Below are positions 32 to 18,896 of a stretch of 20,666 bases of DNA, in pieces. How positions within the stretch are numbered: position 1 is the stretch's first letter; each line of letters starts with the position of its first letter. The notes beneath the pieces were generated by a model, which was given only the letters and a program-made list of their open reading frames with translations, did not search any database and had not been told where the DNA came from. Origin of the DNA: Hadesarchaea archaeon (GTDB lineage: Archaea > Hadarchaeota > Hadarchaeia > Hadarchaeales > Hadarchaeaceae). The translations under genes were made by a program, and so were the position numbers. The stretch lies in contig JAUXAS010000006.1 of assembly GCA_030619825.1 (NCBI GenBank), positions 1 through 20,666 on the forward strand. The letters are read 5' to 3'.

Positions 32-361
32 CTACTTACTCCTTCCAAGCACTATTTCGACGGTCGAAACATTGGCCGCGCCGCGCTCGCCTTGAACCTC
101 TTCAGTCCCAATCAAAATGTTTTTCACTTGGAGCCCCTGCATGAAGCGATTTTTGGTAATCTCCGCAACATCGACGGCCCTGCTGATTGCTCTACCTCGT
201 GCCTTCAAGATAACATCCCCGGAACCCATGTTGAACTGCGTTATCACTGCAAGCACGTAGTTCATCACGGGCTTTATCCCGATAAAAACCACGTTCTCCG
301 CAGCTTGTCTTTCCTTCACCACAGGTTTCTCTTCAGTCACGGCAGGTTTCTCTTCAGCCAT
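32..361 (-). CDS. albA: DNA/RNA-binding chromatin protein Alba
   Basis: Alba motifs [26 protein letters not shown] and VSTVEIVL. Start moved to ATG 361 because GGAGG lies at 371-375 on the minus strand. Confidence 0.96.
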
Positions 362-410
362 TGTACCTTGCCTCCCTTTGTTTTTAGACAATTCTCTCTA
401 TCCTCGGCAT

Positions 411-426
411 TCATAAATACCTTTTG
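411..426 (-). promoter_or_regulatory. BRE/TATA promoter of albA
   Basis: Minus strand CAAAAGGTATTTATGA about 50 nt upstream of the ATG. Confidence 0.6.
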
Positions 427-678
427 GGGGTCGAACCAAGGGCAGGAAAAGTTAAATATTCCAACTTTTTATAGGGTTCCTAGTTTCGGGCCTGAAATGT
501 ATCCATCCAAGCAATTTGATAACCTTTTAGGCCAATTCACACCTGTTGAGAGTGTGTAACACGAAAAATCCAATTAAAAATGCTTCTTTTTTGAGCGTGG
601 AAAATGGGCACTGGTCAAAAGGGTCAGGTAGATGAGCATTTAGTGTGATCCTTTATGTTAAGGGTCGAGAGCGGGTGA

Positions 679-1086
679 CTAACGCCGTCGTGGGACTTCC
701 TTTGTAAGCTGTACCATTCGCTTTTCGATCCTGTCCCGCAGCTCATCCATGTTTCCTTCGCCGCGAGCCAGCGTGACGTAGTCGAGCATGTCGTCTACCA
801 TGAGCTCGGCGGTTTCGGCTTCGAGGATTCCCGCGTAGACAGCTAGCTCGAGCGTGTAAAACGAGCGCATGATGGCGTCACGCCCCCTCCACCAGCGCTT
901 CCAGGCCCCAGGCCTCTGGATGCGGAGCTTCTCGGCGAGCTCTTCAAAGGTCGCGCCCTCGCTCCAGTAGTGAAGGAGCATGGTTTTGAGCGTTTTTTCG
1001 TCCAAGTGGGACCTCTCCAGCAGTGCGCGTGCGAGCAGATTCTCGCGCAGCCATTTTTCAGCTCGAACGAATTCCTCTCTTGGCAT
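679..1086 (-). CDS. Uncharacterised archaeal helix-turn-helix protein
   Basis: GATFEELAEKLRIQRPGAWKRWWRG is HTH-like (sigma region 4-like). GGAGG RBS at 1091-1095. All-helical C-terminus. Confidence 0.75.
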   Translation of the reverse strand: MPREEFVRAEKWLRENLLARALLERSHLDEKTLKTMLLHYWSEGATFEELAEKLRIQRPGAWKRWWRGRDAIMRSFYTLELAVYAGILEAETAELMVDDMLDYVTLARGEGNMDELRDRIEKRMVQLTKEVPRRR

Positions 1087-1098
1087 ATGTCCTCCACA

Positions 1099-1136
1099 TG
1101 TTTCCCTTTTTTGGAAACAAGATTAAAAACCTATTG
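1099..1136 (-). promoter_or_regulatory. TATA box plus inverted-repeat operator upstream of the HTH gene
   Basis: Minus-strand AATAGGTTTTTAATC (1135-1121) is followed by the perfect IR TGTTTCC-N7-GGAAACA (1099-1119). Confidence 0.55.
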
Positions 1137-1145
1137 GAAAAAGAG

Positions 1146-2024
1146 TCACCTTAGGAATGGAAGAGCCCGTTTTAGGGGTGGGCGCTTGTTTGCTGCCTTT
1201 ACAATGCGCGCGTCGATCGGCACATCCATCTCCGCAGCATGGTGAATAGCGTTGCTCGCGGCCTTCAAGGCCGACCTCGGGACTCCCTTGCTGAGTTTGT
1301 AGAGCGATTTAAATCCACTTGGGATCAACAAACCATCGTAGTTGGTGCATCCAGCGTTTTTGAGGCGGAGTTCGAGTAGTTCCTTGAGATTTTTCCTGTC
1401 CATCGGCCTTAGCTTGGCGTGTACTTGTATGCGGTCGAGCAGCGCGGGCACTTTAGCGAGGAATCGTCGCATCTGTTTGAGCTCACCATTGAGGAGGATT
1501 GAGATATTTGGGATGTCAGACAGCACGCGCAGAAATTCACTAACCTCAATCACGTCTGCGCCGCTCTCGGAGATGTCGTCGATGATCACCGCTAGCCGCT
1601 CTTGGTGCTCATGCGGCCATCGGCGCAGGATTTCGAAGAGGCTCGCTTGGTCTTTATTGGCGTCCATCTCCAGCCCCAGAATTATCGCGCGCAGCAGCTC
1701 GTCGGCCGATCTGTACGTGGCGCCGTGGATGAGGATGGGCAGGACGTGTTTTGAAGGATCGGGTGCGGTTAGGCTTTCCTCCCTCAGTGAGGCGGCCAAG
1801 AACTTGCAGGCGGTCGTTTTGCCCATTCCCAGCGCGCCCGTAAGGACGCCGATCTTACCCTCAGACAGCAACCATTTGAGCTTGCGCAGGTCATCCTTTT
1901 GAAATGGGGCAAATGCATCCACCGAGGGTAGTTCGAGCTCGAATGGGTCGCTCTGCAGCCCCCAACGCTGGAGGTAGCTCTCAAAACGCTGGTCGCGACC
2001 GATCTTTTCCTCGAATGTGGTCAT
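1146..2024 (-). CDS. ExeA/GspA-like AAA+ ATPase
   Basis: N-terminal WGLQSDPF, Walker A GALGMGKT, Walker B VIIDD, arginine finger LLDRI, sensor-2 SKGVPR. ATGA overlap with the upstream gene. Confidence 0.85.
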   Translation of the reverse strand: MTTFEEKIGRDQRFESYLQRWGLQSDPFELELPSVDAFAPFQKDDLRKLKWLLSEGKIGVLTGALGMGKTTACKFLAASLREESLTAPDPSKHVLPILIHGATYRSADELLRAIILGLEMDANKDQASLFEILRRWPHEHQERLAVIIDDISESGADVIEVSEFLRVLSDIPNISILLNGELKQMRRFLAKVPALLDRIQVHAKLRPMDRKNLKELLELRLKNAGCTNYDGLLIPSGFKSLYKLSKGVPRSALKAASNAIHHAAEMDVPIDARIVKAANKRPPLKRALPFLR

Positions 2025-2824
2025 CTCGCTACCCTCACTTGCAGTTCAAATGATCCATTTTTACTCGTTAGGTAACCGCGAGCGCTCATTCGTTCACAAA
2101 ATGTCTTCGTGAGCGCTTCCGGGCAGCGGGCCCGGGAGGCGAGATCTTTGGGTGTGAATGTTTTCAATACAATGGCTGCCGAGAGAAGGTCCCCGAAAAC
2201 GGTGCGTTGAGTCAATCCAGCGGGTGCGAGTACATCGAGGATGGCGTGGCGAGGGGCTTCTGCTATCTTTGGGGTAATAGGAGCCGGCCGAATCTCTTCC
2301 TTTATCGTTTTTTCGGGCTTTTGGACGGGTATTTCGGGCGATATGAGCACTTCGGGCGATATTCTACGCTTTTGGACCCGTGGAGGAGCTCTATGTGCTT
2401 CTTGGTGGCATTTCTGGCAAAGCGTGACCAAATTATCTGGATTGTTCCGGCTCGTTCCATCTTTATGATGCACTCCGAGGAGCTCTTTTCCACCACATTT
2501 CGAGCAAGTGTAATCATCTCTGATAAGAGTAGCTCTTTTCACAAGCTCCCAGTCATCTCGATGGTAAGAAAAGACGTAGCTTAAGAAGATTGAAAGGTGC
2601 CCATTTTTTGGGAAGGTGGGCTGAGGGGACAACGGAGGCGAAACTACGGACGGTTTTTCCAGCAAACGTTCTATTTCACCCTCAGGTATCCTCCTTTGAC
2701 CCCCTTCTGGACGCACGACTTTGATTTTTCCTTCTTTGTCCCACCGTCTGATCGTGTTTGGGTGTACCCCCAGTAAGGTGCACGCTTCCTTCATTGTATA
2801 CAGCTTTTTCAACTCTGCCACCAC
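2021..2824 (-). CDS. MerR/excisionase-type HTH + HNH endonuclease + Pro-rich linker + probable C-terminal winged helix
   Basis: YTMKEACTLLGVHPNTIRRWDKEGKI...GGQRRI (MerR/Xis HTH); RDDYTCSKCG..GVHHKD....NNPDNLVTLCQKCHQEAH (Zn-binding HNH); FTPKDLASRA...MSARGYL..KNGSFEL (wHTH-like). GTG start. Confidence 0.85.
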   Translation of the reverse strand: MVAELKKLYTMKEACTLLGVHPNTIRRWDKEGKIKVVRPEGGQRRIPEGEIERLLEKPSVVSPPLSPQPTFPKNGHLSIFLSYVFSYHRDDWELVKRATLIRDDYTCSKCGGKELLGVHHKDGTSRNNPDNLVTLCQKCHQEAHRAPPRVQKRRISPEVLISPEIPVQKPEKTIKEEIRPAPITPKIAEAPRHAILDVLAPAGLTQRTVFGDLLSAAIVLKTFTPKDLASRARCPEALTKTFCERMSARGYLTSKNGSFELQVRVAR

Positions 2825-2960
2825 TTCACTCTTTTTAACAACTTTTCACTTCTCCTAACAACATTAGTTTTAGTTTTACCTTAAAAAGTTAACTATTCCT
2901 GACTGCAATTGAGGAATTTTTAACAAAAGCTAACAAAATTGGGGTTAAAAAGCTAACAAA
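2825..2960. repeat. Cluster of TAACAA direct repeats around the promoter of the MerR-HNH gene
   Basis: TAACAA at 2836, 2856, 2921, 2931 and 2954. TTCACT-N5-TAACAAC occurs twice with a 20-bp period. Minus-strand TATA-like AACTTTTTAAGG at about 2890-2879. Confidence 0.6.
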
Positions 2961-3969
2961 TTCTAGGCGCGGGATCCCCGACAGGCGACTCTAGCAAGCG
3001 CCGCCCCCCGACAACCGTTTCAAGTATCACATCGCTGGGGTGGTCGGTTGTCACTTCGCCTATTACACAGGCTTTTTTGCCGTATTTTGTCTTTAGGACC
3101 GCAGCGAGAACCTCATCGCAGCGCTCGGGTTCAACCCCGATGATTGCCTTACCCTCGTTTGTTATCTGGAGTGGGTCAATGCCCAGCATTTCGCTCATCG
3201 ACCTAACTGCGGGCAGAATCGGGATGTCAGCTTCATTCACTAGGATCCCAACTTTCGCCTTCGAGGCCATATCGTTAAGCGCAGCCGCTAAACCTCCACG
3301 TGTTGGATCCTTCATTGCCGTCACCCCACCTGCTTTAAGAGCAGCTTCGACGGTTTCCCAAAGGGGCGCGACATCAGAGCTAAGGTCAACATCGACGCTG
3401 ATACCTTCCCGGTGAGCTAAAATGCTGACTCCATGGTCTCCGATGGTCCCGGTGACGATGATTTTGTCCCCCGGTTTAAGGCCGTGATCGGTAACTAGGG
3501 TTTCGGCCACACCTATTCCAGTGGTGGTGAGTACTACTCCATCGAGCGCCCCCCGCTCCATGACCTTCGTGTCGCCCGTTATCAACGGGACATTTGCCTC
3601 CCGCGTAGCGGCATCGATCGATTGACAGATTTTCCGGAAATCTTCAACCAAAAATCCCTCCTCGAGCACGGCGGCGCACGCCATCGCCAGTGGGCGGGCT
3701 CCCATCACCGCGAGGTCGTTCACCGTGCCAGCAATTGCGAGCCTGCCTATGTCGCCCCCAGGGAAGAAAAGTGGTTTGACGGTGTGGGAGTCGGTTGTCA
3801 GCACGAGGGTTTTGTCGCCAAGCGATATCGTAGCCCCATCGTCTAGTTCATCTAGCCCAACCTCTCCCGCACGCCTAAGCGAGAGCTCTTTCAGCGCGAC
3901 ATCTACAATGAATTTCATCATCGCCGTGCCGCCGGCCCCATGAATTAGCGAGATTTTCTCATCCGACGT
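2953..3969 (-). CDS. hypE: Hydrogenase maturation carbamoyl dehydratase HypE
   Basis: Motifs TTDSHTVKPLFFPGGDIG, GTVNDLA, TGDTKV, KDPTRGG and C-terminal PRIC. The conserved N-terminal ISLIHGAGG lies upstream of the called ATG (3921) and is preceded only by ACG at 3969; the start position is less certain than the identity. Confidence 0.93.
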   Translation of the reverse strand, partial: TSDEKISLIHGAGGTAMMKFIVDVALKELSLRRAGEVGLDELDDGATISLGDKTLVLTTDSHTVKPLFFPGGDIGRLAIAGTVNDLAVMGARPLAMACAAVLEEGFLVEDFRKICQSIDAATREANVPLITGDTKVMERGALDGVVLTTTGIGVAETLVTDHGLKPGDKIIVTGTIGDHGVSILAHREGISVDVDLSSDVAPLWETVEAALKAGGVTAMKDPTRGGLAAALNDMASKAKVGILVNEADIPILPAVRSMSEMLGIDPLQITNEGKAIIGVEPERCDEVLAAVLKTKYGKKACVIGEVTTDHPSDVILETVVGGRRLLESPVGDPAPRIC

Positions 3970-4334
3970 TTTTTAACCCCCTTCTCAAGTTTCACATTTA
4001 CAATTTCGAGCTCGGTGCCCGAAGTTAGAGATGCTCCATGCCTGCCGCATTTTGGGCAGGCAATTCCAAGCCCGGGCTCCGGCAGGTGGGTGTCCAAGCT
4101 TTTTGCTTTGCCGGAGTAGCCGCACTTGCACTTAATCATAATTGGCACCCTGACGATGTTAAATCCCGTTGAGTTGAACTCGTCACCCCCAAGCTTCTTC
4201 AGCCATAGCCTCAGGGAGCTGGGCTCGTTGATTTCACCCACACGCAAATTTACCTCAAGGATCCGTGCTCCTCGGTCGGCCGATATTTGGTGGAGGGCCT
4301 TTAGCACGCGAGTTGCAAGCTCGACCTCATGCAC
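3945..4334 (-). CDS. hypA: Hydrogenase nickel metallochaperone HypA
   Basis: MHE start (GTG), CKCG and CPKC zinc site, SGTELEI C-terminal strand. Confidence 0.93.
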   Translation of the reverse strand: MHEVELATRVLKALHQISADRGARILEVNLRVGEINEPSSLRLWLKKLGGDEFNSTGFNIVRVPIMIKCKCGYSGKAKSLDTHLPEPGLGIACPKCGRHGASLTSGTELEIVNVKLEKGVKKRRMRKSR

Positions 4335-4554
4335 CGGCTACACCTCGGGTCACTTCATCCCAGGAGCTGAGGATTTCCTTGGCCTTGGTTTCATCTAGTA
4401 CCTGGATGGCGTAGCCCGCATGAACGAGCACGTAGTCGCCCTCACGCACGTTCCCGAGCAAATCTAGCTTGACCTCCCGCCGCGCACCGCCAAAATCAAC
4501 GGCCGCGACCTGTCCATCGATTTTCAACACTTTACCTGGGATCGCGAGACACAT
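4327..4554 (-). CDS. hypC: Hydrogenase assembly chaperone HypC
   Basis: MCLAIPGKV start at ATG 4554 with a GAGGGG RBS; GDYVLVHAGYAI motif. Confidence 0.96.
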   Translation of the reverse strand: MCLAIPGKVLKIDGQVAAVDFGGARREVKLDLLGNVREGDYVLVHAGYAIQVLDETKAKEILSSWDEVTRGVAGA

Positions 4555-4627
4555 CCGGCTTCTCCCCTCGGCCATCTTACTAGATTAACCTTTTCAATGC
4601 TTATTGGGTTTATCTATTGTGGTATTT

Positions 4628-5323
4628 ATGCCGGCGAAATTTGACTTTCACGTGCACACGATGTACTCAGACGGCGTGGGGACGGCCGCGGCGATGGCGG
4701 AGGCGGCAGAGGCACGGGGATTGGAAGCGGTCGCCCTCACCGATCACGGACCCGAGTTGAGCGTGGGTACCCCCCGAGAGAAACTCACCCCCATGCTGCA
4801 GGACATCAGGCTGGCGCAGGAGGACGCGGGTATCCCGGTACTAGCCGGCATCGAGGCGAACGTGGTGGACGAGGGGGGAACTATCGATGTCGATGACGAG
4901 TTCATCGGGAAGCTAGACATCTTGGTGGTCGGTATTCACAAGCTAGGGAAGGCTAAGGATTCAGTTGAGCTCGCTAGAGATTACCTGGGGAGGGCAACCC
5001 ATGCGATCGAGCGCCACAAAATCGATGTCTTGGCGCACCCGTTTTACTTTCATCGCGATTTGGCACCTCACCTTTTACCGGAAGACCTCGAAAATTTCGT
5101 GAGGCTCGCGGCTGGACGCGGGGCAGCGATGGAAGTTAACATGAAATATCGGGTGCCCGGCGAGGAGTTCTTGAGGCTCTGCTTGCATGAAGGGGTTAAG
5201 TTGAGCATAGGCACCGATGCCCACACCACGGGTGAGGTTGGCAGGGTCGATTGGGCGCTTGGGGTACTCCAGCGCATAGGGGCGAGACGCGAAGATCTAA
5301 TTTTGGACGGCTTTTTAAGGTGA
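4628..5323 (+). CDS. PHP-family metal-dependent phosphoesterase
   Basis: Metal-ligand motifs DFHVHTMYSDG, TDH, GIE, GIH, LAHP and GTDAH. ATG 4628 is preferred over TTG 4604. Confidence 0.9.
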   Translation: MPAKFDFHVHTMYSDGVGTAAAMAEAAEARGLEAVALTDHGPELSVGTPREKLTPMLQDIRLAQEDAGIPVLAGIEANVVDEGGTIDVDDEFIGKLDILVVGIHKLGKAKDSVELARDYLGRATHAIERHKIDVLAHPFYFHRDLAPHLLPEDLENFVRLAAGRGAAMEVNMKYRVPGEEFLRLCLHEGVKLSIGTDAHTTGEVGRVDWALGVLQRIGARREDLILDGFLR

Positions 5324-5327
5324 GGAC

Positions 5328-5807
5328 GTGCCGCTTGAGCTTTCTTCCTTCCTAAAAGGCGCAGACCGCGTGGCGATCGTTGGCGTTGGGAGTGAGATGC
5401 GGGGGGACGATGCAGCTGGTATCGAGGTCGTGCGTGGGCTGAGGCATAAGCTCAAGTCGTCAAGGGTGCTTTTGGTTGAGGGCGGAGTGGCGCCGGAGAG
5501 CTTCACTTCAACTATCAGACGGTTCAAACCCTCACACGTGATTTTTATCGACGCAACCGACTTCGGCGCCGAGCCTGGCGAAGTAATCTTAGCAGAGCCC
5601 GAGGCCATCACCGGCCAATCCATCTCGACCCACACTCTGCCGCTTTCCATCCTCGCGGGCTACCTTCGAGAACAGACGGGGGCGAAAATAATACTGTTAG
5701 GGATTCAGCCGGCACGGGCGCAGATGGGCGCGGAGATGGGTGAGCCGATAAAGGACGCGGTTGAGAAAGTCGATGAAGCTTTGCTGAGGGCGCTTGGCTC
5801 ACTTTAG
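5328..5807 (+). CDS. hycI: Hydrogenase maturation endopeptidase HycI
   Basis: Motifs GVGSEMRGDDAAG, PESF, FIDA, STHTLPL and GIQP. Adjacent to a group 4 hydrogenase whose large subunit has a C-terminal extension. Confidence 0.93.
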   Translation: MPLELSSFLKGADRVAIVGVGSEMRGDDAAGIEVVRGLRHKLKSSRVLLVEGGVAPESFTSTIRRFKPSHVIFIDATDFGAEPGEVILAEPEAITGQSISTHTLPLSILAGYLREQTGAKIILLGIQPARAQMGAEMGEPIKDAVEKVDEALLRALGSL

Positions 5808-5833
5808 CTTGCTTCGAGCATGGCACACGTGTA

Positions 5834-6160
5834 TCATTCGGACCTAGCTTGCTGTATGTCGAAGGTCGCGAGCTCGAAGTTCTTGGTCATTGTGATTGCG
5901 CGCGTCGGGCAGGCCTCGGCGCATTCCCCGCAGAATGTGCAGCGCCCATGCCATATGCTCGGTTTTTTGGTTTCCTTGTTCACGCTTATCGCCCGATCCG
6001 GACAAGCTTTGATGCAGAGCCAGCAACGGATGCACTTCTCCTTATCGATGACTGGCGCGCCGCGGAAGCCCTCGGGCGGCTCCACCTTGACGTAGGGGTA
6101 CTTCACCGTGAAGGGCTTGCGGAAGATGTTCTTTACAACAGTGAGCAGGATCTTCGGCAT
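5834..6160 (-). CDS. mbhN: Mbh subunit N, 2x[4Fe-4S] ferredoxin-like (NuoI-like)
   Basis: MPKILL...TVKYP, FRG, CIRCWLCIKACP and CTFCGECAEACP. The real start is ATG 6160; the upstream part of the 250-aa ORF is off-frame overlap with mbhM. Confidence 0.92.
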   Translation of the reverse strand: MPKILLTVVKNIFRKPFTVKYPYVKVEPPEGFRGAPVIDKEKCIRCWLCIKACPDRAISVNKETKKPSIWHGRCTFCGECAEACPTRAITMTKNFELATFDIQQARSE

Positions 6161-7113
6161 CAGGGCACCACCAGCACCAAGACTAAACTGATTATCGCAA
6201 GTAGCGCCCCAAATGTCAAATAGAACTTCAGGGCCTGGTCGATGCGTAGGCGTGCCATGATGTTTCGCAGGGTCGTCGTGATCAGCACGATGACAAGGGT
6301 TTTGATGAGAAAGTCGACAACACCGGGAATTTGCACCCCACCGATTGTGTAAGCGACTGGTCCTCCTAAGAAGAGGGCGGCGATGAACCCCGCCACGACC
6401 AGCGTTTCGATGTCGTACACGACGCGCCAGATTGCAAGCTTTGGGCCTGAGTACTCCGTCATGGCCCCGTGCACAATCTTGCTCTCGGCTTCGGGGATGT
6501 CGAATGGGACGCGCATGAGCTTTCCTTGGATGCTGGTGAACATGGCGATTAGTGCAGGTATGAGGCGCCAGTCTAGGATGAGCCAACTGTGCTGGGCCTG
6601 GTAACCAACGACCGTCGTGAGGTTAAGGGACCCAACCCGAGTGACGACGGCGATGATTACAAGGATAAATACAAGCTCGTAACTGAACAGCTGGACCACA
6701 TGGCGCGCGGCCCCAACCGAACCAAACGGGCTTCCCGAGGAGTAGCCGCCGAGCATTAGGCAGATGGCAGGGATATTGAGCAGGTAGATGATGACGATCA
6801 AGTCAGCAACCGTCGCTAGCGCGGGCTGGGCTGAGTAGACTGGCAACAAGAGCATCACCGTGACGACCGCCCCCAGGGCGATGAGAGGGACGACGTTGAA
6901 TACCAGAGATTGGGCGGCGTGCGGCGTGATGTCCTCTTTGCTCATCAGCTTGCCAACATCGAGGTATTCCTGCCAGATGGGGGGCCCTATGCGGTGCTGC
7001 ATGTGCCCGGTGACCTTACGGTCGATGCCGACGTAGAGCAACCCAATGAGGGAGGCGAAGAGCAGCCCCGGAAAGACTAGGGAGTTGAAGAAGAAGTCCA
7101 GGACCTCCATCAT
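6160..7113 (-). CDS. mbhM: Mbh subunit M, membrane anchor (NuoH-like)
   Basis: DRKVTGHMQHRIGPP, PFDIPEAE and EYSG motifs; multiple TM helices. Confidence 0.93.
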   Translation of the reverse strand: MMEVLDFFFNSLVFPGLLFASLIGLLYVGIDRKVTGHMQHRIGPPIWQEYLDVGKLMSKEDITPHAAQSLVFNVVPLIALGAVVTVMLLLPVYSAQPALATVADLIVIIYLLNIPAICLMLGGYSSGSPFGSVGAARHVVQLFSYELVFILVIIAVVTRVGSLNLTTVVGYQAQHSWLILDWRLIPALIAMFTSIQGKLMRVPFDIPEAESKIVHGAMTEYSGPKLAIWRVVYDIETLVVAGFIAALFLGGPVAYTIGGVQIPGVVDFLIKTLVIVLITTTLRNIMARLRIDQALKFYLTFGALLAIISLVLVLVVP

Positions 7114-8261
7114 TTCCTCCGTCCCCTCAGCTCATCAAAACTCACGACGCGCGCCTTGCCCGTGTGCGAGTCCACCAAGGTAACGCGATCGGTACAAGCA
7201 AAGCAAGGATCTATGCTCGCCATAACAATCGGGATTTCAGCAATAGTCCCGCCCACGAACATGGGTTTAAATGATGGGATGTTGGCGTAGGTTGGAGGTC
7301 GGACGCGTATGCGCTCCGGTTTATCCGTACCGTTCGAAATTGCGTAGTAGAGTAGTTCTCCTCTTGGGGCCTCTATGCGCCCGAGGGCCTCGTTGGGTTC
7401 AATTTTGGGGGCAACCTTCGTCCGCAAAGGTCCTCTAGGTAAGGCTTTGAGTGCTTGGCGGATTATTCGAATAGATTCTAAAATTTCGCGAAGCCGGACG
7501 ATGACTTTGGCCAAGACGTCCCCTTCCCGCTCGATTATCACTTTAAATGAAATCTCATCATAAGCCGCATAGGGATCATCCCTCCTTATGTCAACATCGA
7601 CGCCAGAAGCCCGGGTGGTTGGGCCCACAATACACAATTTTATCGCATCCTCCTTCGTCAGTACCCCAACACCCATACAGCGCGCTAAAATCGTGCGATC
7701 TGAGGTACAAACGTCGATGTAGTACTTGGTCTCTTTTTCGAGCTTATTTAATACTCTCAACATTGTGGGAACATATTCAGGTTTTACATCGCGCCTTACC
7801 CCACCCAAGGTGTTTGACGCCGAGATTTGTCGGTTTCCTGAGATCATTTCTTTCAAATCGAGTACGAGCTCGCGATCGCGCCAGAAAAACATGAATAAAG
7901 TATTAAAGCCTATCTCATGAGCAGCCACCCCCGCCCAAAGCAGGTGACTGTGAATGCGCTCGAGCTCGCATAGTATGGTTCGAATAAAGCGCGCCCGGTC
8001 AGGAACTTCGATGTTGGCAAGTTGTTCGATTGTCTGACAATAGGCCGTCGTGTGGGCAACGTTGCATATGCCGCAGATCCGCTCGGCGAGGTAGATGTTG
8101 TGCAGGTAACTTCGCTCCTGCAACGCGCGCTCGATACCGCGGTGTATGTAACCTAATCGGACATTGAGATCGATGATTTCCTCACCTTTAACCTCAAACC
8201 TGAAGTATTCTGGCTCCTTCAGGGCAGGATGTTGCGGGCCAAATGGGACTACAAATGTCAT
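7110..8261 (-). CDS. mbhL: Mbh subunit L, [NiFe] catalytic large subunit (group 4)
   Basis: GPQHP, HRGIE, L1 motif ERICGIC and L2 motif DPCFACTDR followed by a 24-aa cleavable tail. All four Ni/Fe cysteines are present. Confidence 0.96.
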   Translation of the reverse strand: MTFVVPFGPQHPALKEPEYFRFEVKGEEIIDLNVRLGYIHRGIERALQERSYLHNIYLAERICGICNVAHTTAYCQTIEQLANIEVPDRARFIRTILCELERIHSHLLWAGVAAHEIGFNTLFMFFWRDRELVLDLKEMISGNRQISASNTLGGVRRDVKPEYVPTMLRVLNKLEKETKYYIDVCTSDRTILARCMGVGVLTKEDAIKLCIVGPTTRASGVDVDIRRDDPYAAYDEISFKVIIEREGDVLAKVIVRLREILESIRIIRQALKALPRGPLRTKVAPKIEPNEALGRIEAPRGELLYYAISNGTDKPERIRVRPPTYANIPSFKPMFVGGTIAEIPIVMASIDPCFACTDRVTLVDSHTGKARVVSFDELRGRRK

Positions 8262-8695
8262 TTCGATTCCCTCTCAAACTCCTTGCGTAGCGGGTGCGCT
8301 CCCTCCGGCCAATCGTCGGGCAGGAAAAGCCTTTGCGGGTCTGGGTGGCCCTCAACCTTGACACCGAGCATCTCCATGAGGTCACGCTCGTACAAGACCG
8401 CCCCCGGGAAGATGTCGGTTATGGTGAATATTTTCAAATCGTCCTTGGATAGGGAAATTTTCAGGTTTAGTATCGCGGGCTGGCAGTCGAAGTGATAGAT
8501 GACCTCTACGGCATTGCCCCGATCTACCCCAGTTATCGTTGAGAGGTGCGTAACTCCAGCCACCTTCAACGCGGGCAGGAGGTCTCTGAAGCGCTGCTTG
8601 TCGCTCGTGGCGAAAAGGCGACGCTCGCTCACAATTCTCACATCGCCAACGTGCGCTTTGATGAGGTCAGCGACTTCTTTGGAATCCATTTTCAC
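8258..8695 (-). CDS. mbhK: Mbh subunit K (NuoC-like)
   Basis: HLSTITGVD, YERDLMEMLG..EGHP and HPLRK motifs. Start is GTG 8695 or ATG 8689. Confidence 0.92.
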   Translation of the reverse strand: MKMDSKEVADLIKAHVGDVRIVSERRLFATSDKQRFRDLLPALKVAGVTHLSTITGVDRGNAVEVIYHFDCQPAILNLKISLSKDDLKIFTITDIFPGAVLYERDLMEMLGVKVEGHPDPQRLFLPDDWPEGAHPLRKEFERESK

Positions 8696-9105
8696 ACCTT
8701 CTCGAGGGCTTTGACTAGGGCAAAAATAATAGCCTCCGGTTTCGGCGGGCAGCCCGGCACATAGGCGTTGACAGGTATGAACTTGTCTAGGGGACCGACG
8801 ACATTGTAGCAGTCATAAAAGACGCAGCCAGAGGCGGGGCAGGAGCCAACCGCCACCACCATCTTCGGCTCCGGCATTTGCTCGTAAATTCTGATGATCC
8901 TATCTTTGGCTTGCTTGGTTATGGGTCCAGTGACAACTAGAATATCAGCATGCCTTGGGGAGCCCCGAACTTGCATACCAAAGCGCTCGATGTCGTGGCG
9001 TGGTATGATTGTTGCGACGACTTCGATACTACAGCCATTGCAGCCGCCCGTGTCGAAGTGCAGCAGCCATGGAGACTTTCTCCTGAAGAAGCTAACTAGA
9101 CCCAT
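8692..9105 (-). CDS. mbhJ: Mbh subunit J, small Fe-S subunit (NuoB-like)
   Basis: GGCNGCSIE, SPRHAD, VGSC and PGCPP motifs. Confidence 0.95.
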   Translation of the reverse strand: MGLVSFFRRKSPWLLHFDTGGCNGCSIEVVATIIPRHDIERFGMQVRGSPRHADILVVTGPITKQAKDRIIRIYEQMPEPKMVVAVGSCPASGCVFYDCYNVVGPLDKFIPVNAYVPGCPPKPEAIIFALVKALEKV

Positions 9106-9464
9106 CAGCCCACCCCTATCACCAGCGCGATCGATATGAGAATGATGATAAGCCCCACGACCACCCAGAACAGGTAAGTGCTGAGGTCGCCGCTGTGAGC
9201 AGGACGGATGTAACGATAGAAGGGCCTGAAGACACGGCGGATGGGCGAGAAAAACTGCTCGCTGTCCGCATGGATATCACTCGCTTCCAGCTCCTCGCCA
9301 CATGCGTAGGTCTTGAGCTTTCCGGCGCTCGGCTTTGCCTTGGTGAGCCTGCGTCCGCCCAGGAGGATGAGCCCCCCGACAGCAGCAATCAATAGCATCG
9401 CCGCGGTCGCGATGATAGGTCCCCAAAATCCACGTCCGAACAACACCGATTCAGATATCATCAT
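9105..9464 (-). CDS. mbhI: Mbh subunit I
   Basis: GFWGP followed by a TM helix, YACGE, HSGDLSTYLFW and a final TM helix; lies between mbhH and mbhJ. ATG 9464 overlaps the mbhH stop. Confidence 0.85.
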   Translation of the reverse strand: MMISESVLFGRGFWGPIIATAAMLLIAAVGGLILLGGRRLTKAKPSAGKLKTYACGEELEASDIHADSEQFFSPIRRVFRPFYRYIRPAHSGDLSTYLFWVVVGLIIILISIALVIGVG

Positions 9465-10957
9465 GCACCACCCAACACCGCACTTATGTAGCCGCCCGAG
9501 TTCATCACAGCTTCCTGCGCTGGGCGCACGATGTCTATCCCGAGCTGCGGGAGTACCCCGAATACCACGCAGAGAACCGCGAGCAACATAATCGGGAACA
9601 TCATGGGTAGCGGGGTTTCTTTTACATCGCTTAAATGTTTTGGCCGCTGCCCGAGGAAGATCGAGTTGAGTGCCTTCAGGAAGTAAGCGAGCGTCAGGGC
9701 ACTTGTGATGAGGGCAATGATGGTGAACACGGGCTGCCCGGCCTCGATGCCAGCCACGTAGATCATCCATTTGCTCGCGAACCCGTTGAAGGGTGGTACC
9801 CCTGAAATCGCGAGGGCCCCCACCACGAACAGCGTCGCGGTCACTGGCATGTTCTTCCAGAGCCCCCCGAGCTGGTCCATGTTAGAGGTTCCAACGCGGT
9901 AGATGATTGCCCCGGCGATCATGAACAACATCGTCTTGTAAATGGCGTTGTTGAAGAGGTGGAAGAGCCCGCCTTGGATCCCCAGCACTGTGCCCAAACC
10001 GATTCCGAGTAGGACGTAACCGACCTGGGAAATGCCTGAGTAAGCCAAGAGACGCTTGAGGTCACGCTGGGCGAGGGCCATTAGCGCCCCGATCACCATC
10101 GTCACTAGCCCGAGGGCAGCGAGCATGATTCCTATCGCGAAAGCCCCGAATAATGTGTAGACCACCCGCACCATCGCGTAAATTCCGACGGTCGCGGTAG
10201 CCCCCGAGAAGAGGGCGGCCACGGCCGAGGGCGCGGCCTGGTAGGCGTCGGGCATCCACATGTGCAGGGGTACCACCGCAATCTTGATGCCGAGTCCCGT
10301 CACGAAGAGGGCGAGCGGCACAATCACGGCTGATGGGGATACTTGGCCGAGCTTCTGCGCTAGGTCGGCGATGTTGAGGCTGCCCACGAGCCCGTAAAGA
10401 AGTGCAATGCCCAGCAGGATAAACGAGGTCCCCAATGAGCTGACGATCATGTACTTGATGCTTGCCTCGATTGACTGCCACTTTCGCCTGAACGCCACGA
10501 GGGCGTAGGAGGAGATGCACATTATCTCGAAGAACACATAGAGGTTGAAGATGTCTCCCGTGAGCGCGACGCCCATCATCCCAGCCACGATGAGTAAAAA
10601 GAGTGTGTAATACTGGTCGAGCCCGGTATCGCGCTCCATGTAGACGAAGGAATAAATCATGACGAGTGTGCCGATGCCGGCAACGATGAGCGCAACGAGC
10701 AAGTTCAGCCCGTCGATGGCAAGGTTGACCCCCCAGGGAGGCTGCCACCCTCCTAGCTGATAGACGAGCACTTGGCCGCCCCACACCGCTGGCAACATGC
10801 TCGCCACGACCGCGAACTCCGCAAGCACGACAGCGATCGCAAACCACTCCCGGGCGCGTTTGATGCCTCGCCGGCGAGACAAAATTCCAATTACCGGCAT
10901 CAGGAATGCAGCGAACAGCGGGAGCAGGATGGCTAAAATTGGGGCGTGGGAGATCAC
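9461..10957 (-). CDS. mbhH: Mbh subunit H, MrpD/NuoM-like antiporter subunit
   Basis: TGDIFNLYVFFEI, KIAVVPLHMWMPDAY, DLKRLLAYS and GVPPFNGFASK motifs; many TM helices. Confidence 0.95.
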   Translation of the reverse strand: MISHAPILAILLPLFAAFLMPVIGILSRRRGIKRAREWFAIAVVLAEFAVVASMLPAVWGGQVLVYQLGGWQPPWGVNLAIDGLNLLVALIVAGIGTLVMIYSFVYMERDTGLDQYYTLFLLIVAGMMGVALTGDIFNLYVFFEIMCISSYALVAFRRKWQSIEASIKYMIVSSLGTSFILLGIALLYGLVGSLNIADLAQKLGQVSPSAVIVPLALFVTGLGIKIAVVPLHMWMPDAYQAAPSAVAALFSGATATVGIYAMVRVVYTLFGAFAIGIMLAALGLVTMVIGALMALAQRDLKRLLAYSGISQVGYVLLGIGLGTVLGIQGGLFHLFNNAIYKTMLFMIAGAIIYRVGTSNMDQLGGLWKNMPVTATLFVVGALAISGVPPFNGFASKWMIYVAGIEAGQPVFTIIALITSALTLAYFLKALNSIFLGQRPKHLSDVKETPLPMMFPIMLLAVLCVVFGVLPQLGIDIVRPAQEAVMNSGGYISAVLGGA

Positions 10958-11319
10958 TCCTTCAACCTCCTGAGCTTCGATGGGTCAAGCGTGCCGTAGT
11001 GGCGGTAGGCGTAGATGGTGAGCGAGAGAGCCAGCGCGAGGATGCAGATGTTGATGACGATTGAGGTCAGCACGAGTGCTTGAGGGATGGGGTCGACGGC
11101 TTGGGCGGCAAATCCAGGGAGATCCGAGAACATCTCCCCGCTGACGATCGCAGCCGCGCCTCCTGAGCGATATCCAAGGCTTATCAGGAAGAGGTGGATC
11201 CCATCGGTCAGCACGACTAGGCCGATGATGAGCTTGATCAGGTTTCGCTTGAGCAACAAACAGTAGAGCCCGAGCGCGACTAGGAGCATTGCGATGACAT
11301 AGTTGAAATCCAACTTCAC
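10954..11319 (-). CDS. mbhG: Mbh subunit G (MnhC-like)
   Basis: NLIKLIIG and DPIPQALVLTSIVI motifs. Start is uncertain (GTG 11319 or TTG 11313) because of the repeat. Confidence 0.9.
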   Translation of the reverse strand: MKLDFNYVIAMLLVALGLYCLLLKRNLIKLIIGLVVLTDGIHLFLISLGYRSGGAAAIVSGEMFSDLPGFAAQAVDPIPQALVLTSIVINICILALALSLTIYAYRHYGTLDPSKLRRLKE

Positions 11320-11349
11320 ACCCCTGTGAATTTCACACCCCTGTGAAGT
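11313..11349. repeat. Two tandem copies (17-bp period) of the palindrome TTCACA-CCCC-TGTGAA
   Basis: Exact copies at 11315-11330 and 11332-11347; outer ACTTCACA...TGTGAAGT symmetry. Confidence 0.95.
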
Positions 11350-11363
11350 CCAGGTTCGTTCAT
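11316..11363 (-). other. Putative translated mini-ORF MNEPGLHRGVKFTGV linking mbhF to mbhG
   Basis: ATG overlaps the mbhF stop (ATGA) with a GAGGTGA RBS; its TGA overlaps the mbhG GTG (GTGA). Confidence 0.55.
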
Positions 11364-11794
11364 TTTTCGTCACCTCTGAAAGCGAACAGCATCGCGTAGA
11401 AGATCAAGAGGATGCCAGCCGCGACCTTTATCCCGACGCCAAGGTAAAGCAGGGGCAAGTTGCCAGCGCTGAAAAGCTGCCCGAGCTCCCCCAGCGGAAA
11501 CTTGTTTTGCAGGAATGCGACGCCGAGCAAGAGGCTGAGCAAGCCGAGGACGACTATCGCTAACCCCCCGATGCTTTCAAGCACTTCAGCTTGCAAGAAG
11601 CTAACCTTCGTTTCCGCCCGCTCGATGCCGTAGGCTAGGAGTAGCATCACCACCGAGGCGGCGATGATCACACCACCCGGGAAACCCCCTCCGGGAGTCA
11701 GGTGGCCGTGGAGCACAATGTAGGCGCCGAAGAGGAAAGTGAACGGGAAGAGGAGCCTCGTGATGGTTCGAACGATCACCGTCATTCCTGCCAT
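11360..11794 (-). CDS. mbhF: Mbh subunit F (MnhB-like)
   Basis: HGHLTPGGGFPGG and LFSAG motifs. Confidence 0.92.
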   Translation of the reverse strand: MAGMTVIVRTITRLLFPFTFLFGAYIVLHGHLTPGGGFPGGVIIAASVVMLLLAYGIERAETKVSFLQAEVLESIGGLAIVVLGLLSLLLGVAFLQNKFPLGELGQLFSAGNLPLLYLGVGIKVAAGILLIFYAMLFAFRGDEK

Positions 11795-12093
11795 TACTCT
11801 CGCCTCCTGAATGCCCTGAACACCATCACCACGCCCACGACAGCCGTGAAGAGCACCGTCACCTCGCCCAGCGTGTCGTAGCCACGATAACCCCAGACGA
11901 CGCTCGTAACCACATTTGCCGCACCCGTCTGCTGGGGAGCATCCTCTAAAATCCGCTGCCCGATGCTGTTCTCGAGATCTTCCCCGATCTGGCGGGCGGG
12001 GAAAGAGCCGAATGGTAACAAGTTAGTGCTGACGGTGAAAACAAGCAACGCGCCAATCGCCAAGACCATCCCAAATGCCAGCACTCGCTGCAT
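11794..12093 (-). CDS. mbhE: Mbh subunit E
   Basis: [26 protein letters not shown] motif. Confidence 0.92.
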
Positions 12094-12345
12094 CTATTCT
12101 TCCCTCCTCGTGCGGCTTATCGCTATTACGAATATCACGGTCGCCACCCCCACCCCCACGGCCGCTTGGGTGATTGCGATATCGGGGGCCTGAAGCATGT
12201 AAAAAATTACGGCGAGGGAGATGCTCGCGCCGGCTAAAACGATCACCGAGTGGAGCAGGTCCTTGAGCTCGATCGCGATTAGGGCGAACACGAACAGGAG
12301 CACGAGCAGGGCATTTTGGATCAGCAACTCGAGACTCAATTTCAC
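12094..12345 (-). CDS. mbhD: Mbh subunit D
   Basis: KDLLHSVI and LQAPDIAITQAAVG motifs; three TM helices. Start is GTG 12345 or TTG 12339. Confidence 0.9.
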   Translation of the reverse strand: MKLSLELLIQNALLVLLFVFALIAIELKDLLHSVIVLAGASISLAVIFYMLQAPDIAITQAAVGVGVATVIFVIAISRTRREE

Positions 12346-12379
12346 ACCCCTGTGAACTTCGCACCTCTATAAACTTCAC
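12341..12379. repeat. Same 17-bp-period palindromic repeat: one exact, one degenerate and one partial copy
   Basis: TTCACACCCCTGTGAA at 12341-12356, TTCGCACCTCTATAAA at 12358-12373 (12/16 identical), TTCAC at 12375-12379. Confidence 0.9.
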
Positions 12380-12383
12380 TCAT
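12342..12383 (-). other. Putative translated mini-ORF MSEVYRGAKFTGV linking mbhC to mbhD
   Basis: ATG overlaps the mbhC stop with a GGAGG RBS; its TGA overlaps the mbhD GTG. Confidence 0.55.
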
Positions 12384-12706
12384 GCTTTCTCCTCCTTGAG
12401 CTTGTCGACCACGCTTCGACGCCAGAGCTTGACGCCGGACTTGTGGGCTGCCCGAGCGATCGCATGGGAGCCCACCGGGTTTGTGAGGAAGAGGAAGAGG
12501 GCGATAATAAGAGCTTTTAAGGTGTACAAGCTGAGCCCCTCGAGCACACTCACACCTATAAGAGTCACAATCACCCCACCGACCACGACGACGGTATTTG
12601 CGTGAATTCGGTTGTAAACGTCTGGGAAGCGCACGATTCCCATCGCCCCAATGAGAGCACAAAAGGCGCCGATACCAAGCAAGATGTAAGCGATTATTTC
12701 AATCAA
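12380..12706 (-). CDS. mbhC: Mbh subunit C (MnhG-like)
   Basis: GIVRFPDVYNRIHA and TNPVGSHAIARAA motifs; TTG start. Confidence 0.93.
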   Translation of the reverse strand: MIEIIAYILLGIGAFCALIGAMGIVRFPDVYNRIHANTVVVVGGVIVTLIGVSVLEGLSLYTLKALIIALFLFLTNPVGSHAIARAAHKSGVKLWRRSVVDKLKEEKA

Positions 12707-12963
12707 GTTTCGATCCCCCTTCCTTCAAGATATTTTGCGATGGCGAGCGTTACCAAGAAGGCGAGGAAGGCGTAGACCAAGGCAACGTCGAGGTAGATCG
12801 GGGCGCGGTAGTAGACGCCCAGCAGCACTAGGGCACCGATCATCAGCACGACTAAGGCATCGATGGCGATGACCCGATCGGGGGCGGTGGGGCCCAGAGC
12901 AGCGCGGAGCGCGCAGAAGAGGCATGAGCCGAAGACGATGATAAGCACCCCGAGCAGAATCAT
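12703..12963 (-). CDS. mbhB: Mbh subunit B (MnhF-like)
   Basis: GPTAPDRVIAID, YLDVALVYA and AKYLE motifs. Confidence 0.93.
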   Translation of the reverse strand: MILLGVLIIVFGSCLFCALRAALGPTAPDRVIAIDALVVLMIGALVLLGVYYRAPIYLDVALVYAFLAFLVTLAIAKYLEGRGIET

Positions 12964-13463
12964 CTGAATATCCTCCTGAGGAAGCGCTCGAAGGGTCGAG
13001 CTATTTGCCTGCTGGTTTCCTCGGGCTCGATTGCCTTGACATCGATCCAGTGCACGTATAGGGAGGATTTCTCTTCATTGACATCCACGCTGAGCGTACC
13101 CGGAGTCATCGTGATTGCGTTGGCCAAGCCGGTGATGCCGAAGTCACTCTTGAGCTCAGTCGGTACTCGCACGATGCCGGGTTTAATGGGCATTCGTGGG
13201 TGCAAGATGCAATAGATGACGCTTGCATGCGCCTTCAGCTCGGCCCAGATATATGCGGGTAGATAGGCGAGAGCGTAGCCCCATCGCTTTGGTTCAAATT
13301 TCTCCCGCATCCCCCCGCGAAAGAGGAGCTCGTAGGAAACCACGGCCACGAAGGCAGCGACGATCGCCCCCACCCCGAGCTCTTGGAAATCGAGTGAACC
13401 TGTTAGAGCAATCCATGCTAGCCAAAGGCAGACGAACGCAACGAACAAACTCTCCTTGGTCAT
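12960..13463 (-). CDS. mbhA: Mbh subunit A (MnhE-like)
   Basis: PIKPGIV, LANAITMTPGT and LYVHWI motifs; first gene of the operon. Confidence 0.93.
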   Translation of the reverse strand: MTKESLFVAFVCLWLAWIALTGSLDFQELGVGAIVAAFVAVVSYELLFRGGMREKFEPKRWGYALAYLPAYIWAELKAHASVIYCILHPRMPIKPGIVRVPTELKSDFGITGLANAITMTPGTLSVDVNEEKSSLYVHWIDVKAIEPEETSRQIARPFERFLRRIFR

Positions 13464-13574: not shown

Positions 13575-13721
13575 TTGAACACTTTGCTGTTTGTGCCCAT
13601 GTTGATCGTGACCTGGCACATCGGCGTGACCTTGTTCGAGCGTTCTCGCTGCACACGCCAGGCAAGCCCCCCGTTGGCGTTTCCCGGCGGATTTACAAAT
13701 CGTGGCATGGGGAGCTCATGA
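13575..13721 (+). CDS. Possible 48-aa small protein with hydrophobic N-terminus
   Basis: TTG start after AGGCGGG; open frame MNTLLFVPMLIVTWHIGVTLFERSRC...GSS; its stop overlaps the ATG of the next gene; TTTTAAA at about 13537-13543. Confidence 0.35.
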   Translation: MNTLLFVPMLIVTWHIGVTLFERSRCTRQASPPLAFPGGFTNRGMGSS

Positions 13722-17803: not shown

Positions 17804-17872
17804 GTATAATTTTTTGAACCAAAAAGTATTAATAAATAGACTTATACTAAAAAACTGAACTAAGTGGTTCAA

Positions 17873-18403
17873 ATGTTTGGACTAATGAAAAAAACGCCTG
17901 CTGCAATCTTGAGATTTTTCTTCGATAACCCCTCACGCGAATTCTATCTCAAAGAGATTCAGGAGGGGACCAAAGCTGCCAAAGCTGGCCTCATCAACTG
18001 GTTGAACAAATTCGTTAAAATGGGCATCCTCACCAAAAATACGCGTGGGCGGCTACGCATTTACAGCCTGAAAAGCGGGGACCCGTTTGTGAAACACCTG
18101 CGGATCTTGATAAACGTCAGCGCATTTCTCCCCTTAGCGGGGGAGCTCGGAGAGCTCGATGTCGAAGTCTATCTCTATGGTTCAGTTGCAAGAGGAGAGG
18201 ATGTGGAGGGTAGCGATGTGGACCTGCTGATTCTCGGCAAGGCGAAGCCGCGGGAGGTCGCGAGGCGCGTGCAGTTGTTTTCTAGGAAGGTTGGGAGAAG
18301 GGTGAGGCCACAGGTTTTCTCCAAGTTCGAATGGAGCCAGATGGTCAAAAAAGACCCGGCATTTTTCGAGAGGGTGGAGCGGGACAAAATCAGGTTGGTG
18401 TGA
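17873..18403 (+). CDS. wHTH + minimal nucleotidyltransferase (MNT) antitoxin
   Basis: N-terminal wHTH (REFYLKEI...GIL...GRLRIYSL); YLYGSVARGED..SDVDLLI. Start is ATG 17873 or GTG 17864. Confidence 0.9.
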   Translation: MFGLMKKTPAAILRFFFDNPSREFYLKEIQEGTKAAKAGLINWLNKFVKMGILTKNTRGRLRIYSLKSGDPFVKHLRILINVSAFLPLAGELGELDVEVYLYGSVARGEDVEGSDVDLLILGKAKPREVARRVQLFSRKVGRRVRPQVFSKFEWSQMVKKDPAFFERVERDKIRLV

Positions 18404-18841: not shown

Positions 18842-18896
18842 TAGAACTTTATGTAATAATCTTACATAATGCATAAGAAAAATGTAGAAAGTTCTA
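18842..18896. promoter_or_regulatory. Nested inverted repeats at the abiE promoter (probable AbiEi operator)
   Basis: TTATGTAA-N5-TTACATAA (18849-18869) inside TAGAACTTT...AAAGTTCTA (18842-18896), just after TATA-like AAGCTTAAATA. Confidence 0.65.

Follow-up and report, generated by a model that had tools for sequence, protein, structure and literature searches.

The positioning of archaeal chromosomes is mostly an open question, and the few known systems all use ParA (PMC5120986, PMC13722703). In one of them, the sites of SegB have been left open as both centromere and operator (PMC5120986). Outside these systems, BldC binds direct repeats head-to-tail and Bacillus RacA has been named a MerR-like architectural protein (PMC5859096), IS607 TnpA binds short (9-bp), helically phased direct repeats at the left end (PMC6188088), and the membrane-targeting sequence of Haloferax MinD4 follows a long acidic extension (10.1101/2020.04.03.021790). 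Here we describe a locus in a 20,666-nucleotide stretch of DNA (hereafter the window; contig JAUXAS010000006.1, assembly GCA_030619825.1) from a Hadesarchaea archaeon of the Hadarchaeota, a phylum of the deep subsurface, comprising a predicted DNA-binding adaptor (gene A), an AAA+ ATPase (gene B) and a more loosely linked third gene (gene C). Gene order, domains and the ATPase tail are conserved, two DNA sites are unique in the genome and vary together with the proteins, the DNA-binding domain has been exchanged as a cassette, and an HNH domain is optional. The locus is a real, conserved and previously undescribed archaeal core module and is not a defence nuclease; its function we infer, tentatively, to be that of a DNA-to-membrane tether. 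Its parts, in window coordinates, are as follows (HTH, helix-turn-helix; pLDDT, per-residue model confidence):

2021–2824, minus strand: gene A (product P0001, 267 aa), predicted DNA-binding adaptor with HTH, optional HNH, flexible linker and winged helix.
2654–2803, minus strand: BldC/Xis/IS607-TnpA-like HTH of the HPNT type (residues 8–57 of P0001), from profile and structure matches.
2387–2608, minus strand: helical lead-in and zinc-binding HNH (residues 73–146), catalytic motif intact here and optional in the family.
2261–2386, minus strand: low-confidence linker rich in Pro, Glu and Lys (pLDDT below 50 at residues 160–184).
2024–2260, minus strand: C-terminal winged helix (residues 189–267), the constant part of gene A and its predicted ATPase-contacting domain.
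1146–2024, minus strand: gene B (P0002, 292 aa), ExeA/TnsC/Cdc6-related AAA+ ATPase.
1149–1181, minus strand: basic, aromatic and amphipathic ATPase tail (residues 282–292 of P0002), predicted membrane-targeting sequence.
679–1086, minus strand: gene C (P0003, 135 aa), sigma4/Tfx-like HTH protein.
2835–2959, minus strand: repeat array over the gene A promoter, predicted to be bound by the P0001 HTH and a candidate for a centromere-like site.
1099–1119, no strand: palindrome TGTTTCC-N7-GGAAACA, predicted binding site of P0003.

A preliminary description, made from the letters of this DNA alone, had recognised genes A and B, and their open reading frames (ORFs) are confirmed on the minus strand with a shared ATGA at 2021–2024; it missed the repeat array, the ATPase tail, the palindrome and gene C. 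The locus is also spanned by contigs assembled from other, independent DNA runs (X13 at 328–3600 with 32 differences, X8 at 269–2796) and is therefore not an assembly artefact. An RNA-library contig of a close relative (X18) spans 1919–3600 and 1729–1889, although such contigs cannot demonstrate transcription.

The ATPase was found by profile in 59 of 66 Hadarchaeota genomes, including 24 of the 26 high-quality ones, and in 36 of 41 relatives by single-sequence search. It is normally single-copy, second matches being split genes, contig breaks or weak hits, with the exceptions of G049 (two copies, 7% contamination) and G044 (a partial second copy). The survey covers 58 loci in 57 genomes, with contig-edge fragments only in two more. 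A gene encoding an HTH, a low-complexity linker and a winged helix ends at the ATPase start in 56/57 genomes (the G035 locus is cut at its 5' end), so that the two genes co-occur as the preliminary description had supposed; in the exception, G041 from another order, the winged helix is fused to the ATPase. The neighbours are housekeeping genes, namely alba, a class II tRNA synthetase, hyp genes and a PHP gene or, in family f5, topoisomerase VI and a ligase. Transposase and secretion families are absent from the 9 window proteins scanned and from 111 neighbouring ORFs scanned in 14 related loci, in keeping with the earlier impression that none lie nearby; these neighbours also include no integrase, and division genes are not conserved among them. 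This near-universal, single-copy and syntenic occurrence is unlike either a defence island or a live mobile element. None of the described systems tested here fits the pair, and no description of the module was found in the literature searched, most subscription journals and supplements lying outside that search.

The N-terminal domain of P0001 (residues 8–57) matches HTH_17/MerR (E 2e-13) and, on this domain only, the excisionase (TIGR01764), BldC and IS607 TnpA profiles. It is ∼40% identical to BldC over ∼52 residues, lacks the MerR coiled coil, and aligns with the BldC–DNA structures 6ama/6amk at TM-scores of 0.78–0.83 of target with Foldseek E above 0.001; Foldseek returned no match at E 0.001 for either model searched. 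Just upstream is an IS607-type feature for such an HTH, an array of short direct repeats comprising five TTGTTA[AG] copies (plus-strand starts at 2835, 2855, 2920, 2930 and 2953; spacings of 20, 65, 10 and 23) among eight GTTA[AG] words. This is the best TTGTTA[AG] cluster of the genome, the next best having 2 copies, and none of 2000 dinucleotide shuffles reached five copies (mean 0.3). A repeat-binding MerR-like HTH had already been suggested for gene A; the domain assignment stands, and the array that was lacking from that suggestion lies beside it. Because BldC and IS607 TnpA both bind direct repeats, the same mode is the natural expectation for the P0001 HTH.

Among relatives the place of the HPNT-type HTH is taken by different MerR-like types or an unrelated, Xre-like HTH (a label given from weak HTH_3 matches, E 0.007–0.013), and the upstream motif follows the HTH type. 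With two loci omitted from the tally, HPNT goes with GTTAR (24/24), xKT with GACAH (12/13), SVRT with GACAH (3/4) and Xre-like with CTAC (12/14), while the sole SPST-type locus has GATAAA repeats upstream. In the HTH tree 22 HPNT+HNH sequences split from 17 others with 100/98 support, a clade that the ATPase alignment rejects (approximately unbiased test, p-AU 4.7e-6; three partial ATPases omitted). Pairwise distances in 36 loci correlate with those of the ATPase at rho 0.92 for the winged helix and 0.82 for gene C versus 0.63 for the HTH. Because the trees conflict and the winged helix, not the HTH, tracks the ATPase, the array and HTH (with the HNH where present) were exchanged as one block, ahead of a constant core of winged helix and ATPase. 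Gene A, a core gene, has thus repeatedly had its DNA-binding domain and its site replaced together. Such a swap would be intolerable for a regulator with a dispersed regulon; specificity that can be swapped together with one cis site implies a single target for the adaptor, the array upstream of its own gene. Furthermore, at least nine HTH type changes have left the fusion of HTH and winged helix intact, suggesting that bringing the winged helix and ATPase to the site is probably under selection.

The HTH is closest to IS607 TnpA and to stand-alone excisionase-like proteins in viral contigs, making IS607-like elements a plausible donor. Recent homing-like spread of either the HNH or the HNH-less cassette was rejected, since its synonymous divergence equals that of the ATPase; the exchanges are therefore old. 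We also looked for an HTH-to-repeat code in unrelated IS607 and phage genes, where some of 15 viral loci were suggestive (L089, L094, L096) and the picture was inconsistent, and this is not used as evidence here. These signs of exchange bear on a further explanation, that the locus is a domesticated Mu/Tn7/IS21-like targeting unit or old homing-type insert with a residual recombination role, its ATPase derived from a TnsC/MuB-like regulator and its HTH, array and HNH from IS607-like or phage elements. Besides the exchanged cassette and the IS607-like HTH with its repeats, this is favoured by matches of the ATPase to VchTnsC (6e-8), a target-activator B protein (2e-4) and the PHROG "DNA transposition protein" (2e-16), which also support the TnsC relationship first proposed for it. 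We nevertheless regard such a role as very unlikely, because it accounts for the origin of the parts and not for their phylum-wide retention or the ATPase tail, and because the chromosomal position is fixed, the neighbours lack transposase or integrase, and neither cassette shows a recent sweep at synonymous sites. Viral contigs, moreover, hold no member of the family, only two distant ATPase matches (25–27%) and HTH-only matches, which led us to reject the idea that the entire module came from a mobile element or virus.

The HNH domain (residues 107–145, E 2e-5) has its CxxC, VHH, N, CxxCH and H elements and lies between the HTH and the winged helix (residues 190–264), as the preliminary description had it. 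That description further proposed, as the core activity, an ATPase-regulated site-specific nuclease, possibly for defence, and asked whether the HNH is a variable insert. It is: the HNH is carried by 24/57 loci and absent from 33/57, and the ATPase tree requires at least six switches in its presence. Of the 24 HNH loci, 11 keep the HH dyad, Asn and His and the other 13 have lost at least one catalytic residue, whereas all 24 retain the four zinc cysteines. These counts do not support a nuclease core. In favour of defence, the HNH is intact here and at 10 other loci, where it is under purifying selection (between G000 and genus g8, 60/71 HNH residues [85%] are identical at 44–58% synonymous difference, versus ∼61% identity for the ATPase at the same synonymous divergence), and there are domain-level matches to ZorE and MADS Mad1 and a weak ATPase match to Mad8 (4e-4). 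Yet a defence nuclease would be hard to reconcile with an HNH missing or altered (13/57) at most loci, with a single-copy locus syntenic across the phylum, with the want of any PtuA/PtuB match, or with an HTH whose only linkable site is the promoter of its own gene, and we judge it highly improbable.

The remainder of gene A is a linker of ∼11–75 aa in relatives and a winged helix. In the AlphaFold model the latter (residues 190–264) is a generic winged HTH (wHTH; best Z 10.1, root-mean-square deviation [rmsd] 2.1 Å over 71 residues), and an Atlas search likewise returned generic wHTH clusters only. R207 is R or K in 55/57 loci, and a conserved basic face was not found on the recognition helix.

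P0002 belongs to AAA_22 (E 1e-11), with a match to the PEP-CTERM/ExeA-type ATPase below cut-off and a profile match to Cdc6 (2.5e-9); its ExeA-like assignment holds. It has a Walker A motif at residues 63–70 (GALGMGKT), Walker B at 147–150 (IIDD), N179, R198 and GxPR at 247–250; G66, G68, K69, D149, R198, G247, P249 and R250 are invariant across 24 diverse members. Among 1.84 billion representatives searched, ∼15 clusters above 170 bits count as members of the family, followed by archaeal AAA+–wHTH proteins (two labelled Asgard), TPR- or membrane-anchored AAA proteins and ExeA-type proteins. Some family ATPases bear one or two N-terminal zinc ribbons (L025:1246–2289 of G018; P0081, P0082, P0100), and a related family (P0105, P0110, P0112, P0115, P0119) has a signal peptide, TPR, predicted membrane helix and zinc ribbon before the AAA domain.

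The ATPase is likely bound to the membrane through its amphipathic C-terminal tail, as judged from composition. At least two aromatics occur in the last 12 positions of 42/56 complete ATPases versus 21% of 591 long ORFs in this genome, and aromatics combined with a hydrophobic moment of at least 0.6 in 24/56 versus a background of 7.6%, the ATPases coming from related genomes and so not being independent. A short hydrophobic end is kept even where linkers precede it (acidic ones of up to ∼90 residues in genus g15, basic ones in family f2), and a ∼20-residue hydrophobic helix substitutes for the tail in G019. The in-genome MinD proteins have no aromatic-rich tail (0/6) and so provide no positive control.

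A membrane-bound ATPase could alternatively do a membrane job unrelated to DNA position, such as ExeA-like assembly or the positioning of division or envelope components, with the winged helix as its protein partner and the HTH and array serving dosage control. Most of the more distant matches of the ATPase are indeed ExeA-type, some with predicted membrane anchors, the winged helix lacks a conserved basic face, and MinD/ParA-family genes lie within ∼2 kb in G034, G043 and G046. However, this explanation leaves the persistence of the HTH–winged helix fusion unaccounted for, secretion and division genes are not conserved neighbours, and, with several paralogues in each genome, a MinD gene nearby is close to what chance would give; we think it improbable. 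In G034 the MinD/ParA-family gene (L066:5330–6052) has a four-base overlap with the end of gene C, and genes A and B were not found in that genome. Displacement of the module by MinD/ParA was considered and rejected, this being a lone case among many paralogues.

Gene C is present in 40/41 relatives and its matches comprise 43 records among 185,579 species genomes, most from Hadarchaeota/Hadesarchaea and four labelled otherwise. The P0003 fold matches sigma region 4 (Z 7.5–8.5) and the HTH of the archaeal transcription factor 8hno (Z 7.8, rmsd 0.9 Å over 52 residues); Pfam sigma4 and TFX_C gave no match, and Atlas neighbours at 0.81–0.82 are leads only. Throughout most of family f1 gene C follows the ATPase in tandem, and it diverges from gene A in f2, in most of f4 and in G047. 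It is more loosely linked than the pair, lying apart from it in G018, 5.6 kb off in G028, and occurring without it in G031 and G034. Module type and family label are mismatched in G040 and G030 (f4), which have the f1-type tandem module, and in G047 (f1), which has the divergent Xre type, reflecting either whole-module transfer or taxonomic noise. In the three f5 genomes (G028, G031, G034) gene C is directly behind the topoisomerase VI genes. In relatives an Lrp/AsnC gene lies between gene C and alba (L061:5137–5628), and contigs exist with 772 other letters between 335 and 713; window positions 392–678 hold no Lrp/AsnC ORF, so that the gene has been lost or has decayed.

Upstream of gene C the palindrome occurs as TGTTTCC-N7-GGAAACA at 44/56 loci and TACTTCC-N7-GGAAGTA at 11/56, one locus having neither. 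It is a single site per genome in 5/5 genomes, scoring 31.9 with a position weight matrix against 11.8 for the next best in the genome; G000 has six sites that match exactly over 10 bases with spacer 7, and all are weak except that upstream of gene C. Residue 58 of P0003 is R or K with the TGTTTCC palindrome and Q with the TACTTCC variant at 51/51 loci on the tree, with six changes in each. The half-site GGAAAC resembles the right half of archaeal origin recognition boxes (ORBs), the spacer being 7 bases here versus 3.

The array and the palindrome each overlap a promoter, and one intergenic region serves both gene A and gene C, which are divergent, in families f2 and f4. Both facts suit a membrane-coupled regulatory circuit, in which the adaptor is a repressor under the control of an ATPase that responds to nucleotide or to the state of the membrane; the pair would be a split archaeal AAA+–wHTH regulator, with gene C controlling itself or the neighbouring alba. 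The nearest relatives outside the family are in fact AAA_22 proteins with a fused C-terminal wHTH (G041, P0104, P0131, P0125, P0140). Against this, the split winged helix aligns non-significantly with the fused ones (hhalign probability 5%), for which reason we rejected its derivation as the split-off domain of such proteins. Neither site recurs in the genome, apart from isolated extra pairs in G002 and G044, so that a regulon is not the output, and one for gene C in particular was rejected for want of a second palindrome. We consider the regulatory circuit unlikely, if less readily dismissed than a membrane job unrelated to DNA.

The explanation we favour, with due reserve, is a partition-like tether that holds one origin-proximal site at the membrane and is built on an AAA+ ATPase rather than on ParA, actin or tubulin. 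Chromosome organisation was among the options listed in the preliminary description. An adaptor at a single array together with a membrane-bound ATPase would link DNA and membrane at one origin-proximal locus, as follows. On the array the HTH would oligomerise head-to-tail in the manner of BldC on its direct repeats, also repressing its own operon, and the ATPase tail would bind lipid. The flexible linker and winged helix would bring the array-bound adaptor to the membrane ATPase, autorepression being a by-product, and the winged helix would bind and regulate the ATPase, whose ATP-dependent assembly and release may lead to positioning or segregation. Where present, the HNH would be mainly a zinc-stabilised structural or accessory domain, and the sigma4-like product of gene C would bind the palindrome as an autoregulator or second site-binding component.

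The data agree with origin proximity of the module. In all three genomes with both on one contig, the module lies 28 kb (G002), 51 kb (G025) and 39 kb (G033) from cdc6, and local GC-skew minima at ∼785–790 kb (G002) and 321–326 kb (G025) are ∼45 and 59 kb from it. An ORB-like site accompanies the G025 minimum. Orc1/Cdc6 genes are separate from the module and present in 64/66 genomes, and ParB_N domains occur in 17/66.

Several points weigh against a tether. We know of no AAA+ ATPase acting as a partition motor, contact between the parts of the module is a prediction from sequence, and an array over a promoter would suit a pure autorepressor equally well. Origin proximity comes from three related genomes and regional skew only. 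The motif classes were set after the data had been inspected, and the independent pairs, though in agreement, are too few for significance in HTH and motif (4/4, p 0.125) and non-significant in residue 58 and palindrome (3/3, p 0.25). Single tails seldom beat shuffles of their own residues (p <0.05 in 6/56), and a clear amphipathic tail is missing in G035 and G028. The intact HNH is under purifying selection in some lineages, and because it is so strongly conserved there it may retain an accessory nuclease or metal-binding role. The phylum already has ScpA (58/66), SMC-like genes and 1–12 MinD/ParA-family genes per genome. Finally, searches failed to find the module in G031 and G034 (92% complete) and in five genomes of lower completeness, and it is thus not indispensable everywhere.

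In family f5 (G028, G031, G034) ScpA matches are also missing (0/3), the module being missing in two of these genomes and diverged in the third. The SMC-like genes beside scpA are short, at 728–793 aa, and below the SMC cut-off (G000:C64:9392–11956; G002, G021, G025, G038).

If the tether is correct, it adds an AAA+-driven class to the few known systems and provides a concrete function for those ExeA-like ATPases that are not part of secretion. The module is directly testable whichever output it has, consisting of three small proteins and two predicted DNA sites, and its natural specificity switches (HPNT/GTTAR versus xKT/GACAH; R/K versus Q with two palindromes) are built-in controls.

Elsewhere in the window, an Mbh-type membrane-bound hydrogenase operon lies within 2953–13463 together with hypE, hypA and hypC-like genes, a PHP gene and a maturation protease, all identified by their translations (only hypE and PHP were scanned by profile). 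On the plus strand, 13718–17803 encode a protein of 1361 aa that is likely exposed at the surface: it has Kelch and CBM96 domains, and inspection of its sequence shows a signal at the N-terminus and a membrane anchor at the C-terminus. Next, at 17864–18840 (plus), a nucleotidyltransferase gene (NTP_transf_2; PADLOC PDC-M05A 2e-27) and an HEPN gene form an MNT-HEPN toxin–antitoxin-like pair, directly followed at 18869–20451 (plus) by the type IV toxin–antitoxin genes AbiEi and AbiEii (PADLOC 1e-64, 8e-54). These four genes are a small defence-like cluster.

Compared with known systems, the locus departs from ExeAB of type II secretion in that P0002 is an AAA domain only, the peptidoglycan-binding domain, ExeB and the secretion-system or secretin genes being absent, and from Tn7, Mu and IS21 in its fixed position and in the lack of a DDE transposase family among its neighbours. 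It differs from Orc1/Cdc6 in that the Cdc6_C winged helix is not fused in the order-level members, PF09079 being on other contigs (G000, C49, C35). Septu shares an ATPase gene beside an HNH, but there PtuA is an ABC-type ATPase and the HNH nuclease PtuB a constant component, whereas the ATPase of this locus belongs to AAA_22, having sensor and arginine-finger motifs, and the HNH is optional; the PtuA/PtuB models give no match at E 0.1. Likeness to Zorya (ZorE) and MADS is confined to domains, and methyltransferase, kinase, specificity and ZorA/ZorB families are not among the 111 neighbouring ORFs. The DipA GTPase, SepF-like DipB (DUF2073) and zinc-ribbon DipC families of the divisome-positioning Dip (Oap) system are unmatched by P0001–P0003 (system features from PMC13228585).

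RacA anchors the origin region to the pole via DivIVA. Like the adaptor as reconstructed here, it combines a MerR-like HTH on origin-proximal sites with a second domain reaching a membrane-associated partner, but the sites of RacA are many, palindromic and GC-rich, in contrast to the one direct-repeat array found here, and it lacks such an ATPase partner. BldC, Xis and IS607 TnpA share the MerR-like fold and AT-flanked short direct repeats at 10- and 20-bp spacing (PMC5859096, PMC6188088). BldC, however, is a 68-residue global regulator with a regulon, whereas this HTH is exchangeable, has one array and is a domain within a 267-aa fusion to a winged helix (39.6 bits to the BldC family NF033787 versus a cut-off of 77). 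TnpA carries a serine-recombinase domain, while P0001 matches NF033518 at residues 12–58 only (34.8 bits versus a cut-off of 110). MinD proteins, including Haloferax MinD4, share an ATPase ending in a short amphipathic helix, sometimes behind a long acidic linker (10.1101/2020.04.03.021790); they are of the ParA/MinD class rather than AAA+, and the ATPase here has a DNA-binding partner.

The closest parallels are AspA-ParB-ParA of pNOB8 and SegAB of Sulfolobus, which share overlapping genes, a two-domain adaptor with a long flexible linker and an ATPase (PMC5120986, PMC13722703). P0001–P0003 match none of the ParA, ParB, SegB and AspA families, P0002 is not AAA_31/CbiA/ParA, and where those systems use a DNA-binding ParA deviant-Walker ATPase, this module has an AAA+ (AAA_22) enzyme with a predicted membrane tail. 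AspA binds a 23-bp palindrome upstream of its own gene, the palindrome here being 21 bp, and in segAB and aspA-parBA the sites lie upstream of the cassette and are possibly both centromere and operator, as here (PMC5120986). As for dedicated sites like those of ParABS, SegAB, AspA-ParBA and HpaAB, this locus has a unique array and palindrome that appear to co-vary with the proteins. More speculatively than the tether itself, we see it as possible that the module represents a new class of partition or anchoring system, the first with a membrane-bound NTPase of the Cdc6/TnsC/ExeA group of AAA+ proteins, with a single origin-proximal centromere, and with site and reader swapped as a cassette partly from IS607-like elements, in a phylum mostly without ParB.

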